Source of the DNA: Anolis carolinensis
Taxonomy: Eukaryota
Length of the DNA stretch: 64,000 nucleotides
Direction: 5' to 3'
Assembly: GCF_035594765.1 (NCBI RefSeq)
Contig: NC_085842.1
Span: 128,601,036-128,665,035 of the forward strand
Position 1 is the stretch's first letter, and each line of letters starts with the position of its first letter. A model generated the notes under the pieces. The model ran no database searches and was not told where the DNA came from. It worked only from the letters and a program-made list of their open reading frames with translations. Of the stretch, positions 55,102-63,510 are shown piece after piece. The translations under genes and the position numbers were made by a program.

Positions 55102-56052
55102 GTGAGTCGGGTTCTTCTAATTTTTCTTCCATACTTTTACTGGCCCTTGGATCCTTTTATTACATCCTGTATCTTACCACTGCTGTCTGACAACACTTTG
55201 GTTAAAAAACTGGGAATGGTCTATGTAGTATCCTAAAGGTGTCAAATCTTCTTTTTAAATAAACAATGAAGCAAAATACTTATTTACAAATCATCCCCCA
55301 TATCCCCAGATTCTGCATCCAATGATTCAACCATCTATGCTTTCATTTTGTTGTAATCCAACAAGTAAACCTTAATGTTCCTCCTATTTTATATAACGGA
55401 CACAATTTTATTATGCCATTGCATGTAATGGGACTTGAGCATCCAGGGGTCTTGGTATCCCTGGAGGTCCTGGAAATGAACCCCATCGGAGGCCAATGAC
55501 TCACAGTAATGTTATTGTACATGGAAAGTCTGACTTCCTCTTTCAGTATATGCCATTTTTTTTTTACGTAGATAATGTCTATTCATGCTCCCACTTTCTT
55601 CTGTATTTATTGTGCTAATACCAAAGCGGATGGCTTGGCTTTTCCCTTCTTTTGAATAGTTCTTCTTCGTGGTGCTTCTGTGGAAATCGCACATATGGGA
55701 TTTTTTGCGCCTGCGCAGTACAGCATTTGGAACCTTCTAGAACTTTTCAGTGAAACATTTTGGCGGAAGCCCCGCCCACTCTCCCCAGTAGAGTATATAA
55801 GCCCAGTGGGCGGGGCTAGCCCCAGTTCCTTCTTTCTGCCGCTCAGTCAGCACTGTAGGAACTTCTCTAGAATAGATTGCGTTTTACCATCAGCTAGACC
55901 TCGGCTTGTTTTAGACTTTGATATTCTCCTACCTTTTGACCCAGACTGGCTTTGGCTATAGCAAATTTCTCCTGCCTCGACTTGGACCGTCTTCTGACTC
56001 AAGTTTTTTCTGTTGGCAACGACTAGCTTTGGCGCGAAATCAGGCCAGTGTG

Positions 56053-58590
56053 ATGGCATCATTTTTCAAAAAATGCACTACCTACGGGGGGAAGCTCCCA
56101 GAGGCAGATAGCCATTCCAAGTGCTTGCTTTGCCTGGGAGAGGGGCATATTCATCAGTCCTGCCACGTCTGTCAGGGGTTTACCCCTCAGGCAAGAAAAA
56201 ATTGAGAATCTAGACTAAAGGCCCTCCTGTACGAGCAGGCCTTAGCCCCAAGCCTTCCCGGCCTTTCCCCCTCCCAATCCCGGCCAAGCCTAACGGCCGA
56301 GGAAGATTCTGGCTCTGCAGGCCCTTTAAATCCTCCATTATCGGAAATGGCCCAGGCCGATGCTGTGATTATGCCGCTCTCAGGGGACACACAGCCTAGC
56401 CCAAGGGGACGATCAACTGCCCGTCTGAAGGAAGGCCGCAAAAAGACTAAAAAGTCCAAGCACTCTTCCAGGGCTCCCCGCCTGCAGCCCTCCCCTCCCC
56501 AGTGGTGGGAACCCTCGGTACGATCCCCAAGGAGGAGTGATCCTCCTACCCCGACACCAGTCAAGCGATGGAGCTCGGAAGCGCTTTGCCCGTCCGGGCA
56601 TGTCCCTGTTAAGCCAACAGTCGCATTGCCGAGTGAACAGCAGGAGGCACGGGACCGAGGGCAGAGGATTGAGAGAGAGGCCTCAGCATCGAATTCGGCG
56701 AGTTCCTCTCCTCCACCAAAGAGATCCAGACGGGGCCGAGGCTATCCGTCTAGGCAACGGCACTCCCCATCCTCTAGCTCGGGAGCGTTTAGATCCCCGG
56801 AAGCATATCGCCTTACCGCCAGGGCTCTGGCAGCCGTTTGCGTGAACCCCGCTTCCCATTCTATCCCTATGGCCAAGTTTTTCCACCTTACCCGTTTCCT
56901 CCTTCGCCTGGATTCGAGGCCTTCCCACCTAGTGGTCCATATGGTTTTTATGCAGCCTCTTCAGGTTCAAATCATACCCAGGCTGCTCGTAGCCATGCCT
57001 CCCTGGCTCCATCCCCGTTCTGGCCTGGCCCTAGCCATGCCCCCCAATCGCACGCAATGGACGCGTCTTTGAGGGCTCCCTCTACCATTCGGGCCTTGGA
57101 CCCGGCACTCAGCGCTGAGGGGGGCCGGGCTGGGAACGCTCTTCAGCCCCCACCAACGGGGCAGGCTTCTACAACACTGATAGCGGCCCTCACCGACTGG
57201 GTGCTGCAATACAACCACCGGAAAATGGTGAAACTTTTCCTATGGCTCCTGTAGCCATTGTAGGCCCCCATGACGACTTAGACCCTCCCTCAGCTGAGGA
57301 CATTAAAACTTTTTCTGCATTGCTGATTCACCTGTCTAAGGCCCTTAACCTACCCACACAAAAACCAACCAAGGTGGTAGAGGATCCAGTTTATCCTTCC
57401 TCTAAACAACAGGGCCCACTTACCACAGCTCTACCATCCTTGCCTTACCTTACAGAGATTGTTAAAAATGAGGGAGTTTCTCTGGCAGCACTCCCAGCAA
57501 CACCAAGGAGGGCTGAGTACTTGTACAAAATTGACCTTTCAAGGGCCCCTTGGCTAGCTAAGCAAGCCAAACTGAGCTCACACGTTTTATTCTTCAGCAT
57601 GTCTCTTTGCCAGGATGGCTCACTACGGCACCTACACAGGAGCATACCAGACTTACCTATGGGAAAAGATGGCTCCTTACATACCCTGTTGCCCCTAAAA
57701 TAAGACATCCCCAGAAAATAAGACCTAGTAGAGGTTTTGCTGAATTGCTAAATATAAGGCCTCCCCCGAAAGTAAGACCTAGCAAAGTTTTTGTTTCAAA
57801 GCATGCCCAATGAACAGAACACCAGAGCATGCAGGATAGGTAAATGTACCTACCATAGAATGTTTTACATGGAAATAATGGTAGTAACAAGAAATTCTTG
57901 ATAGGATTCACAGTTTGTCTGGTTATGCTGGTTTGTGATGACAACTACTGTACAGTATATAATAAATGATAATTTTTTTGTTCAACAATAAATGTGAATT
58001 CTTCTTCATGGAAAAATAATACATCCCCTGAAAATAAGACCTAGAGCATCTTTGGGAGCTAAAATTAATATAAGACACTGTCTTATTTTCGGGGAAACAC
58101 AGTAGATCTCCTTCCACCCCAGGACCAAGGCATGGCCAGAGCTTTCCAACAGGAAGCATGCCTCCTCTCAGAGCTTCAAAAGGATTTAGCAAAGAACGTG
58201 GCTGATGCTTCGGGAAAGTTGTTGGCAGGAGCCATTTCATTGCGCCATGCATGGCTAAGGGCAGCCAATCTCTCTCCATCCGCGAAGGCTGTCATCGAAG
58301 ATCTTCCCCTGGATGAGGCAGGCATCTTCAATCCAGAGACTGACGCCCAAATTAAAGATACTCATGAGGTGACACAGGCCGCCCACAAATATGGCGTTCA
58401 ACGGGCTTACCAATACCAAAGGCATCAATGCAACCCGTATTACCGCAACAGGAGATCCACCTCTCTGTCCTACAAGGGAAAACAGAAGCCTTCTTTTCGT
58501 CCCTTTGCTGCTAGACAAACCTCTTTCCCCTATAAGGGTCAACACCGCAGTGGGGGAAAGCAGGGTGAGAAGCAAAGGTGTCGCTTCTAG
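56053..58590 (+). pseudogene. DIRS ORF1 (gag-like: N-terminal Cys/His zinc finger, LAP2alpha-like region), disrupted
   Basis: MASFFKKC...DSHSKCLLCLGEGH...CHVC; later SAEDIKTFSALL..LSKALNLP and AISLRHAWLR...IEDLPLD...IFNPETD; stop at 56203-56205, frameshifts and a MITE insertion. Confidence 0.8.
57684..58102. mobile_element. Tc1/mariner-type MITE nested in DIRS ORF1
   Basis: TA|CCCTGTTGCCCCTAAAATAAGACA ... TGTCTTATTTTCGGGGAAACACAG|TA; excision restores WEKMAPYI-DLLPPQDQGMARAFQQE. Confidence 0.88.
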
Positions 58591-58729
58591 TCACCTGGCT
58601 AGGGTCCCTCCCCTTGAGTTTACTCCAAGTTTACATTCCCAGGCTCCCCGCTTGGATGCCGTTAGTTCTCCAGTTTCTGTTACCAATTCGAGTTGGAAGT
58701 TGTCCCACTCTGTTACCCCTCGGCAGGAC

Positions 58730-60950
58730 CAGCGTGTGTTTTATAATAGGTTAGCCTCATATCTTCAGGCATGGGAGGAGATAACGTCTGGCAGATGGGT
58801 CTTAGACGTCGTCAGGAAGGGGTATGCTATCGAATTCACCTCGGATGGGGATCATCCGTCTTACTGCCCCGTCAGACTGCCTCCAAGAGGAAGTATCTAT
58901 CCTTCTGGAAAAGGGGGCTATCTCTAGGATTCTCTTTAGGAGGACTCAGTCATGTTTCTTCTCTAGGTACTTCCTTATTAGGAAAAGAGGTGGCAGCTTA
59001 CGCCCGATCCTTGACCTAAGGGGTCTCAATAGACACATAAGGGCCCGTAAGTTTCGGATGGTTACGCTGACATCCATCCTGCCTCTTATCCAAAAGTGAG
59101 TATGGTTTGCAACCATTGACCAGCGCAACACATATTTTCATATTTCAGTACGGCATTCGCATCGCAGGTATTTGAGCTTTTTAGTTGGGGAGTCGATCTA
59201 TTCTTTCAATGTGTTGCCGTTCGGCTTAGCCATGGCGCCAAGGGTATTTACCAAATGCGTAGCTGTAGTAGCAGCGTACTTAAGACAGAAAAGCATAATG
59301 CTTTTTTCATATATTGACAACTGGCTTTTTGTAAGCGATACTGCAGCCCACCTCCGGGCTGATGTGTCTTTCACGCTCCTTCTGTTGCAGGAACTCGGTC
59401 TCATCGTAAACGGGGAGAAATCCCACCTGATTCCCTCACAACGTATTGAGTTTATTGGGGCGGTTCTAGATTCCCGGTTGGGAAGGGTCTATCTGCCAGA
59501 AGACCGTTTTCATTCCATCCGTTCAGCTATTTTACAACTCTGCACCCGGGGACGGGCCTTGGCCTGGCATATTCAGTCCATCCTGGGTCATATGGCCTCC
59601 ACTACTGCAGTGGTAGGCTTGGCAAGACTCAGGATGAGACCTCTCCAAATATGGTTCCTGGGCACGTTCAACCCGCTCACTGACAGCCAGTGGGTTACTC
59701 TGAGACCCCCCCCAGCTGACCTCTTACGATCCATAAGGTGTGGACAAAGAGACACACTCTACGGGCAGGCCTGCCATTCCATCCTCCAGCACCGACGTGC
59801 GAATTGACGACAGATGCATCCCAGGATGGCTGGGGAGCGCACCTCATCAACCTGGTGATCAATGGCCGCTGGTTGAGCCATGATCACACAGCCCACATCA
59901 ACATATTAGACCTCCTAGCAGTAGAAAGGCGCTCCATGCTTTCGAACGCCTGCTTCGGGGCGCCACCGTAAGGATTGTAACAGACAATACTACCGTAAAA
60001 TACTATATCAACAAACAAGGCAAGACTCATTCGAAGCGCCTGTTGAACCTCTAGCTTCGACTGTGGAATTGGTGTGTGAAGAACCGTGTGACACCGCAAG
60101 CGATCCATCTACCGGGAAAGGACAACACTCTTGCAGAAGCCCTCAGCCAATCGAGGTAACTAAACACCAGGGAGTTCTGGCTCCTGGCACGTCGATGGGG
60201 ATGGCCAGTAATAGACCTATTTGCATCCCCGGAGAACACACAGTGTCCCACATTTTACGCGCGTCTTCGCCCCCTCTCGACCTCGGGATGTTTCAGGGAC
60301 ACGTTCCGGTTCCAATGGACCGGGGACTTGCTATATGCGTTTTCCCTGCTGCCCCTGATAGGCAGGATGGTAGCGAAGATCCTACGCGACAACTCGGACT
60401 GCATCATAGTAACCTCGTGGTGGCCGCGCCAACCGTGGTTAGCGCCTCTCTGGCGGGCGGCCAAGGGCAACTACATCAGGCTTGAGAGCTTCCCCGACCT
60501 TCTCACACTTCACAAGGGGGCGCGTCCTCCACCCAGACATGTCGACACTGAATCTAACCAACTGGAAGGTCAAGCCCCGCAAGACCTCTCCGAGCCGGTA
60601 AAAGCCATTCTTCGGGCATCTTTGCCCCCTCTCGACCCCGGGGTGTTTCAGGGACGCGTTCCAGTTCCAATGGACCGGGGACTTGCTATACGCGTTTCCC
60701 CCGCTGCCCCTGATAGGCAGGATGGTAGCGAAGATCCTACGCAACAACTTGGACTGCATCGTAGTAACCCCGTGGTGGCCGCGCCAACCATGGTTTGCGC
60801 CTCTCTGGTGGACGGTCAAGGGCAACTACATCAGACTCGAGAGCTTCCCCGACCTTCTCACACTTCACAGGGGGTGCGTCCTCCCCCGGACGTGTCGACC
60901 CTGAATCTAACCAGCTGGAAGGTCAAGCCCCACAAGACCTCTCCGAGCCG
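58730..60950 (+). pseudogene. DIRS ORF2: reverse transcriptase, RNase H and DNA adenine methyltransferase-like domain (frameshifted; MT duplicated)
   Basis: LLEKGAI...FFSRYFLIRKRGGSLRPILDLRGLN; LPFGLAMAPRVFTK; YIDN (from YIDD); LTTDASQDGWGAH; TDNTTVKYYINKQG; HLPGKDNTLAEALS; IDLFASPEN; YAFPPLPLI...VTPWWPRQPW. Confidence 0.9.
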
Positions 60951-61943
60951 GTAAAAGCTATTCTTCGGGCAGCCCAGAAGGCCTCCACCAAGCAATCATA
61001 CCGGTACAAACGGACGAAATTTCAAGACTTCGCTCTCTCCAGAGGTATGGACCCAGTAACAGCCCCAACATCGGTCATCCTGGATTTCTTGGTCCACCTA
61101 TCCATGTTGGGCCTCTTCCTCGCCTCCCTAAAGTGTTATTTGTCCTCTCTGTCCTGGTACTGGAGAGGCCTCACGGGGCAGTCTTGCTTCCAAGACCCTT
61201 TAATCAGACTTTTTCTCAAAGAACCCCCACCCTCCGGTGACACCGCCAACACCATCATGGAGCTTGGAACTAGTTCTTTCCCAACTCTCTAAACCACCCT
61301 TAGAACCCATGGGGTTTTCTGAGATTTCTTACCTATCATGGAAAATGCTTTCTTAGTGGCCGTCACGTCTGCGAGGAGGGCCAGTGAATTGTGCGCCCTC
61401 AGGGTGAATCCACCATTCCTGAGGTTCCACAACAATAAGGTTGTCCTAAGGACAGACGTCACCTTCTTACCGAAGGTAGTCTCCAAATTTCATATGTGTC
61501 AGGACATTACGTTGCCGGCCTTCTTTCAGAATCCTTCCTCACCTTTGGAGGTGGCTTTGCACTCCTTAGACGTGAAGAGAGCATTGGCATATTACCTCCA
61601 AAGGACTAAAGACCATAGGAAGTCTCCTCGGCTGTTCCTGAAGTATAGGTCTAACGCACTAGGGACTCCTGTCTCCTCCCAGCGCCTGGCCTCATGGATA
61701 GTTACCACCATCCGCACAGCTTATGCACTTGCAGGCCGAGGTCCTCCTCATCAAGTACTAGCTCACTCAACTAGAGCCTTGTCGACGTCCCAGGCATTCC
61801 TAAAGGGAATGCCTCTGGAAGACATCTGCAGAGCAGCGACATGGTCATCCTCGCTCACCTTTGCCTCCCACTACAAGCTGGACGTCATGGCAAAGAGAGA
61901 TACAGCGTTCGGGAGAGCGGTCCTCTTCTCATGCGTGGCATGA
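60940..61943 (+). pseudogene. DIRS ORF3 tyrosine recombinase (frameshifted; catalytic C-terminal half open 61338-61943)
   Basis: TSARRASEL (R), HSTR (HxxR), ATWSS (W), FASHY (Y). Confidence 0.9.
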
Positions 61944-63510
61944 CCCACCGCCTCTGGTGAGTAGCTTGCTAATCTCCCATATGTGCGATTTCAACAGAAG
62001 CACCACGAAGAAGATATAGTTGCTTACCTGTAACTGTGTTTCTTCGAGTGGTGTTCTGTGGAATTCGTACAACCTGCCCATCCTCCCCACTGTGATCATG
62101 CCACAGTGCTTCAGCTGCTTCCTGGTGGCTGGGAATTGGGGCTAGCCCTGCCCACTGGGCTTATATACTCTACTGGGGAGAGTGGGCAGGGCCTCCACCA
62201 AAATGTTTCACTGAAAAGTTCTAGAAGGTTCTGAATGCTGTACTGCGCAGGCAATCCCATATGTGCGAATTCCACAGAACACCACTCGAAGAAACATAGT
62301 TACAGGTTAGCAACTATATCTTTTGAATAGTTTCCCAGAATCCCTGCTATGTAATACTGCTGCTGAAAAGAGCCTTTCCCTCCCCATCATTACTAGAAGA
62401 GAAGTTTTGCATGTCTGTGGCAGAGTTGTTACAGCAGCTGCCAATACTTGTGCTTACTTTGACCTTTCTACTATATATGTGCCCCCAAGAGGGCAACATG
62501 GTAGATCACAGCTGAAGCAAAAATGGCCACAGGGTAGAAGTGATGGAGCAGAGCTTTTAATATATTGTGATGTGGCATTGTAGAGTTGTGCACAGTCTTT
62601 AAAGCTTTGGGTGCTTTTATCAGCAACTGCGCAAGAACCCTGGTTTCCCAGAGTCATAATTTGTTTGTAAGAACCCATATGTGTATTAAAGAGCCTTCCA
62701 TTGCAGCAGAGATGAGATTGTACTAGAATCAGACTAATAGAGTAGTGGAGATCCTGGATATACTGGTCTAGTCTCTTCTCTGTACACATGCTATGCTGCC
62801 AGTTATTGACAGTACCAAAATTCTCAAGGTCCTTTGTGATTGTCCATCCTAACACTTGCTCACTTGTGAAGCTTCTATCATCTCCTTTCAGTAATCTGTC
62901 CTAGGACCTCCGCTACTGTTATCTTGAACATTTTGGGGCAGTGGCTTTCCCAGTGGAATCAGTCCTTTCTCTTTTCCTACTACCTTCAGCTTTACCTAGC
63001 ATTATTGTCATTTTTAAGTGAGTCAAATTGTCTCATGGTGTGTCAGTTTAGTAATTTCTAGAAAGACATTTGATTTGCTGTAAAAACAATTTCTAGAAGT
63101 TTGATTTGCTTTAGAAGCAATTTCTAGTAAGGAAGATTTGACTTGCTCTAGAAACAAATTTGCAAAGAAGAAAATAAATTCTATAAATGTTTAATTTGTT
63201 CTTGTTGTTGCTGTCATTCTGTATCTTCAAGTCACTTTGGACTTATTGTAACCCTGAAGCAAACCTATCACAAGGTTGGGGGGGGGGGGGGGTCATGGCC
63301 TTTCTCTGAGGTTCTGAGTGTGAGTGTGAGTTGTCCAAAGTCACCCAGTGGGTTTCCATGGCCAACAGGGATTTTAAATAAACATAGGTAAACATTCAGG
63401 ACATACAAAATGAAGTAATGTAATTATTGAAACTATTAAAAACATAAACTATTTAAATGAAAACAGATAATAGAAAATTGAACACATTGTGCAAGGTGCT
63501 TTCCCACCAT

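Follow-up and report, generated by a model that had tools for sequence, protein, structure and literature searches.

DIRS elements are retrotransposons with a tyrosine recombinase (YR), and three sources state that they leave no target-site duplication (TSD) behind (PMC3266345, PMC5941688, PMC8969392). Their complementary DNA (cDNA) is single-stranded (PMC7192593), and recombination is described as taking place between a junction of 3 bp and a host triplet identical to it (PMC3266345, PMC7192593); the joining to host DNA is proposed, not demonstrated (PMC5941688). Ends reading TTT are reported in PMC9210276, the accessible text of which does not mention duplications. Our literature search found no DIRS copy with a long duplication; most subscription papers, including those in which Goodwin and Poulter first treated DIRS, and supplements lay outside this search. 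Here we describe a decayed, old DIRS1-like copy in a stretch of 64,000 nucleotides (the window) of the genome G000. This copy is flanked by a duplication of host DNA that is real, lineage-specific and about 10 bp long (possibly 13 bp). The duplication is the insertion scar of one copy and not a property of the element sequence.

The duplication and the true ends of the element

The initial annotation of the window had reported a 13-bp direct repeat on both sides of the element, and a search of the window finds exact copies of TCTTTTGAATAGT just there, at 55648-55660 and 62319-62331. The repeat is in fact 14 bp long (55648-55661 and 62319-62332, forward strand, spacing 6671). There is no third copy of TCTTTTGAATAGT in the window, even with one mismatch allowed, and with the same tolerance only one of 100 shuffles gave two or more matches.

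How much of this repeat is duplicated host DNA depends on where the element ends. The other copies of the family start with TT and stop 6 nt past GCAAC. By this rule, the window copy occupies 55660-62320 and the host duplication measures 10 bp (55650-55659 and 62321-62330), while the TT at 55660-55661 is the start of the element and the TC at 62319-62320 its end; the 14-mer's outer letters, TC and TT, are thus common to the host and the element ends. The window copy's internal complementary region (ICR), reverse-complemented, reads GCAACTATA TCTTCTTCG, in agreement with the circle junction that had been predicted from it. This ICR has one TTC (3 nt) fewer than the copy's own left end and most ICRs of its group. 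Read literally, it gives a duplication of 13 bp with no sequence lost. We consider a net duplication of 10 bp rather than 13 bp most likely from the comparison of related copies, because a three-TTC left end is present in L128 and L130, its nearest 5′ relatives, and because the same shortening of the ICR recurs in L059 and L148. L057, however, has two TTC in the left end and the ICR alike, so that 13 bp is the less likely alternative.

The structure is found in sequencing runs. A search with the left flank located organism A, of which three runs (X2, X7 and X9) were compared, and four other organisms (B to E). X7 spans the right junction (62278-62759, with 43 letters inside the element); at the left it reaches 28 letters into the element, short of the 31 letters that we required for bridging. 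X2 matches 55413-55667 without any difference, and the pieces listed for X9 miss the junctions. Since X7 and X2 show the same structure as the window, an assembly artefact is very unlikely.

For the empty site, the runs of the four other organisms were compared with 55495-55684. X13 (organism D) yielded no contig, and the three informative runs come from two studies. X14 (organism E) matches the window without a gap through 55661 and then resumes with the letters of 62333 onward. X10 (organism B) and X11 (organism C) have the same empty joint, with deletions of their own (3 nt and 2 nt, respectively) within the repeat. The orthologous site is therefore empty, with one copy of the repeat, in all three informative runs (organisms B, C and E), and hence the duplication originated on the lineage into which the element inserted. 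The flanks differ from those of organism B by 4%. This comparison, which had been proposed as a check on the repeat, rules out an ancestral tandem repeat. The suggestion that the element crossed over within a pre-existing 13-bp tandem is thereby refuted as far as the ancestral state is concerned, and only a lineage-specific tandem formed shortly before insertion remains of it.

Other insertions of the genome and their junctions

Other DIRS copies of G000 were gathered by DNA and pattern searches. The 194 stretches fetched gave 123 independent insertions with both ends usable; the others had been taken in the wrong direction, showed no left end over 8-10 kb, or belonged to a locus already represented. 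Left out of the count were L048 (an inverted duplication with a false left end), L176 (its right end mis-called) and L137 (which shares its flanks with L136). To allow for small indels, the left ends of seven copies (L035, L059, L070, L103, L148, L192 and L193) were moved manually, and three of these were given their TT from the printed sequence. The survey is partial, as 632 matches to the end/ICR pattern exist, and it is biased to contig C1 and to well-kept ends; moreover, at least ten copies came via a pattern in which the host side must read TTCT, so this motif is inflated.

None of these 123 insertions has a flanking duplication of 8 bp or more, so that, by the rule of three, the rate of such duplications is under about 2.4% (95% bound). 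The exact lengths from 0 to 7 bp occur 48, 56, 13, 1, 2, 1, 1 and 1 times, against 49.7, 57.3, 12.8, 1.6, 1.3, 0.2, 0.07 and 0.03 expected from shuffled flank pairs, so that the spectrum resembles that of shuffled pairs up to 4 bp. A fixed or narrow length of duplication in most copies, as in a family that makes TSDs, is not seen. The proposal of the initial annotation that the family makes staggered 13-bp duplications finds no support in this tabulation, which had itself been suggested as a check, with the caveat that G000 holds no near-identical sibling of the window copy. In turn, its premise that DIRS elements normally lack a long TSD, as stated in the literature cited above, holds for the family and fails for the window copy. 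The nearest relatives of the window copy with both ends (L128, L068, L059, L058 and L067) have no duplication either.

Among the longer exact repeats, the 5-bp and 6-bp cases and one 4-bp case (L065, L066 and L143) lie in microsatellites. The 7-bp duplication of L216 (G000:C1:114808500-114816499) is not in a microsatellite; 0.04 such cases are expected by shuffled pairs and 0.09 by host tandems. As its repeat is composed of the letters that targets favour on the left and on the right, L216 is a lead only, and possibly a second case.

The junctions of the family follow a single rule over 36 junction types. In 119 of the 121 copies with an ICR the left end starts with TT, and the 6-mer at the right end is the same as the 6-mer of the ICR in 108, one base off in nine and two bases off in four. 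The right end keeps this variable 6-mer (36 types) in all 121 copies, whereas it is never complete at the left (best five of six, once). The crossover is thus one clean point across the 121 copies. The host letters at +1 and +2 are TT in 95 of 121; 26 copies lack TT on the right, as opposed to two on the left, an asymmetry with a one-sided binomial probability of 407/2^28 (about 1.5e-6, calculated by hand). At -1 the host has T in most copies regardless of the junction base, and C in 14 of 76 junctions of the C type. Unlike the description in PMC3266345, an identity between the host trinucleotide and the 3-bp junction is therefore not found family-wide in these 121 copies. The target letters of the host are G/T at -2/-1 and T at +2, with an excess of A at -9 to -7 (p 9e-4 to 5e-6 against 30%).

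This pattern bears on the manner of strand exchange. Since tyrosine recombinases cut 6-8 bp apart (PMC3212892), mixed products would be expected if two strands were exchanged between spacers that differ. A single clean crossover point in the absence of a 3-bp identity with the host would fit an exchange of one strand that is resolved by the host, as is known of integron integrases (PMC4792948); biased mismatch repair would predict the same junction pattern. Single-strand exchange might also explain how a duplication is left when, on rare occasions, the resolution is off register.

How the duplication may have arisen

On balance, we think that the duplication probably stems from a one-off integration with two junctions 10 nt apart, which was finished by repair at the TCTT and TT microhomologies. 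The recombinase would have engaged the target at the left junction, and the right end would have been joined 10 nt upstream, where the host and the circle junction have TCTT in common. Fill-in would then have duplicated the 10 nt, with host repair likely completing the joining at short shared sequences. The ends of the element are precise, the ancestral site has one copy of the repeat, and the other insertions lack such a duplication. The microhomology between host and circle junction consists of TCTT at the right junction, as the initial annotation had pointed out, and of TT at the left, and both junctions conform to N|TT. When the target profile of the family is applied to 220 positions and strands around the empty site, the cut after 55660 ranks first (score 5.62); this optimum lies 1 nt from the left junction and is the best within 110 bp, and the right junction comes eighth. 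Furthermore, there was little time for a separate earlier tandem, because the decay of the element (4 differences in 101 positions between ends and ICR, 3.8% outside CpG in its internal duplication) is similar in magnitude to the 4% divergence of the flanks from organism B. Among the three options of the initial annotation, an event completed by repair would be the best one left.

Several points weigh against this explanation, however. The order of events cannot be read from sequence alone, and the repair step is assumed because standard tyrosine-recombinase chemistry offers no simple route to a duplication. The exact junctions score only moderately on the target profile (rank 33 of 123 for the right, and rank 10 of 123 from the bottom for the left), and a microhomology of 4 nt carries little weight in a tract rich in T and C. 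In two of three empty sites, moreover, there are separate 2-3-bp deletions here, a hint of an indel-prone spot, which favours a tandem that came first. As to the frequency of such tandems, 178 of 895,436 random host positions with T at +2 lie at the joint of a non-microsatellite tandem of at least 10 bp, which corresponds to a background of 2e-4 and to 0.025 expected in 124 insertions; this is not a p-value, as it is applied to a single case that a reader had chosen as odd.

A tandem that came first is unlikely in our view, though it would require no unusual chemistry. The 10 bp would have been duplicated by slippage on the lineage of the species, and the element would then have inserted in the usual way at the G|TT joint where the copies meet. 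This joint obeys the N|TT rule (T at +2 in 118 of 123 targets), the TTT after the unit would favour slippage, two outgroups have small deletions here, and three of the five other copies with duplications of 4-7 bp sit in microsatellites. The tandem is absent from organisms B, C and E, however, the background per insertion is low, and the slippage must have come after the species split but before an insertion of about equal age. Somewhat less plausible still is a template switch after a normal integration at one site. While the insertion was polymorphic, repair from the empty homologue would have slipped at TCTT(T) and added 10 bp; a normal insertion at the left site would indeed have given a right junction sharing TCTTT with the host 10 nt upstream, and the element bears other later changes, namely an insert resembling a miniature inverted-repeat transposable element (MITE) and a 355-bp duplication. 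Yet this would need a second rare event exactly at the junction. X7 has the right-hand copy beside the element, X2 and X7 have the left-hand copy, and an allele with the element and a single copy is not seen in the three runs of organism A.

That the window copy's own subfamily routinely leaves duplications of 10-13 bp seems very improbable to us. The subfamily was sampled through relatives, as no near-identical sibling of the window copy exists in G000 (the best match is 76% over the YR region, and two 5′ fragments reach 82-84%); but its nearest two-ended relatives are free of duplications, its YR piece shares 81% identity with the one in the duplication-free copy L032, and one rule fits all 36 junction types. 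We give even less credence to a hybrid of alleles, in which two insertions 10 bp apart recombined to join the left end of one to the right end of the other. Such a hybrid would yield precise ends and a 10-bp duplication, and could account for the one TTC by which left end and ICR differ. However, L068, L059, L058 and L067 lead in every internal segment without a switch (a weak test at 70-80% identity), the inverted repeats differ by just 8 of 160 bases, the mismatch between ICR and left end is also found in L059 and L148, and it is improbable that a rare subfamily strikes one site twice. A chimera of two subfamilies was rejected for the same lack of a switch along the element, with the same weakness of the test. 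Target-primed insertion at a nick of the type used by long interspersed nuclear elements (LINEs), the motif of which is a run of pyrimidines followed by a purine, was rejected as well, since neither strand shows this motif at either junction and a poly(A) tail is lacking.

The element, further loci and known systems

The window element begins on the forward strand with its left terminus and left inverted terminal repeat (ITR; 55660-55829), as judged from the inverted repeats and the left ends of other copies, and closes with the right ITR and a right terminus reading GCAAC-TATATC (62132-62320). The ITRs are 94% complementary between 55709-55829 and 62132-62252. The ICR (61975-62071) is complementary to the left end (61975-62014, 98%) and to the right end (62011-62071, 95%). 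Every reading frame of the element is broken. A region resembling gag (ORF1, 56206-58590) consists of several frames and is split by the MITE-like insert; L032 has a visibly similar protein at the same position, and neither the window pieces nor L032 gave a Pfam match there. It is followed by a piece of the broken pol frame at 59100-59807 that contains reverse transcriptase (RT; Pfam RVT_1, E 2.8e-15). L032 has both RVT_1 and RT_RNaseH, whereas Pfam detects no RNase H in the broken frames of the window. For a methyltransferase-like domain at the end of pol, the window pieces have no Pfam match and L032 has a weak one (PCIF1_WW, E 0.0028). The C-terminal part of the YR frame (61323-61943) follows pol and carries the HSTR motif. 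The window piece has no direct Pfam or PDB match; the L032 protein matches Phage_integrase weakly and below the curated cut-off (E 0.0011), and in a search of PDB the YR protein matches Tre recombinase weakly (E 0.12).

Two additions were made later. The MITE-like insert (57684-58102, 419 bp) has terminal inverted repeats and a TA duplication (57682-57683 and 58103-58104); it is high-copy, with very high contig depth, and is not in L068. A relative of it sits inside the ICR of copy L123. The other is a tandem duplication of 355 bp (60251-60971) inside pol/YR, with 30 differences in 366 aligned bases; that 16 of them are of the CpG type is consistent with decay after insertion. Without both additions, the element measures 6661-421-355 = 5885 bp, which comes near the 5.93-6.05 kb of other copies. 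The closest 5′ relative of the window copy, L128 (86%; G000:C15:5666500-5674999), is an internally deleted derivative of 600 bp with both ends but no ICR, and without a flanking duplication.

Other loci of the survey also deserve mention. L044 and L068 are centred in host inverted repeats with arms of 18-23 bp, probably small palindromic repeats. L136 and L137 are one insertion with identical flanks on two small contigs (C25 and C23), reflecting either a segmental duplication or a duplicated assembly. In L048 the right end is duplicated in inverted orientation together with its flank, L131 has an ICR but no right end, and L121 and L163 each comprise two elements, nested or adjacent. Probably through insertions, the copies at G000:C1:15087843-15106722 and C2:164555822-164568002 extend over about 19 kb and 12 kb from end to end.

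A true duplication beside precise ends departs from the curation rule that DIRS elements have no TSD, and exceptions constrain the mechanism. Taken as a lone accident, the duplication is of minor importance; more is gained from the junction pattern of the whole family, with which the question of strand exchange becomes testable in the existing Dictyostelium assay. In this context, the integron integrase, whose partner is single-stranded and whose reaction is resolved by replication (Escudero et al. 2016, PMC4792948), offers a comparison. It is a tyrosine recombinase, and a one-point crossover without identity over 6-8 bp would suit the pattern in G000; integrons, however, are bacterial and use attC hairpins, and the likeness to DIRS is one of analogy alone. 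It is conceivable, though we consider it unlikely, that DIRS elements integrate like integron cassettes: single-stranded cDNA paired by the ICR would exchange one strand at the border of a free spacer of 6 nt, leaving the host to resolve the rest, normally in register. In at most a percent of events this would slip and leave a duplication of 7-13 bp, of which the window copy, and perhaps L216, would be fossils.

Short host duplications around an insert are otherwise made by DDE integrases and by target-primed insertion of the LINE type. Unlike such inserts, the window copy has no DDE integrase, endonuclease or poly(A) tail, it has precise DIRS ends at left and right, and its duplication is no family trait. 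It is instead comparable to DIRS1-like elements such as AcDIRS1 and AcDIRS2 (Table 3 of Piednoel et al. 2011, PMC3266345). With these it shares the ITRs, an ICR complementary to both ends, the order of gag-like, RT and YR regions, the HSTR motif (named in that paper), a length of about 5.9 kb minus later insertions, and ends of the NTT type with CTT/TTT junctions. The host duplication of 10 bp (or 13 bp) is what sets it apart from them.

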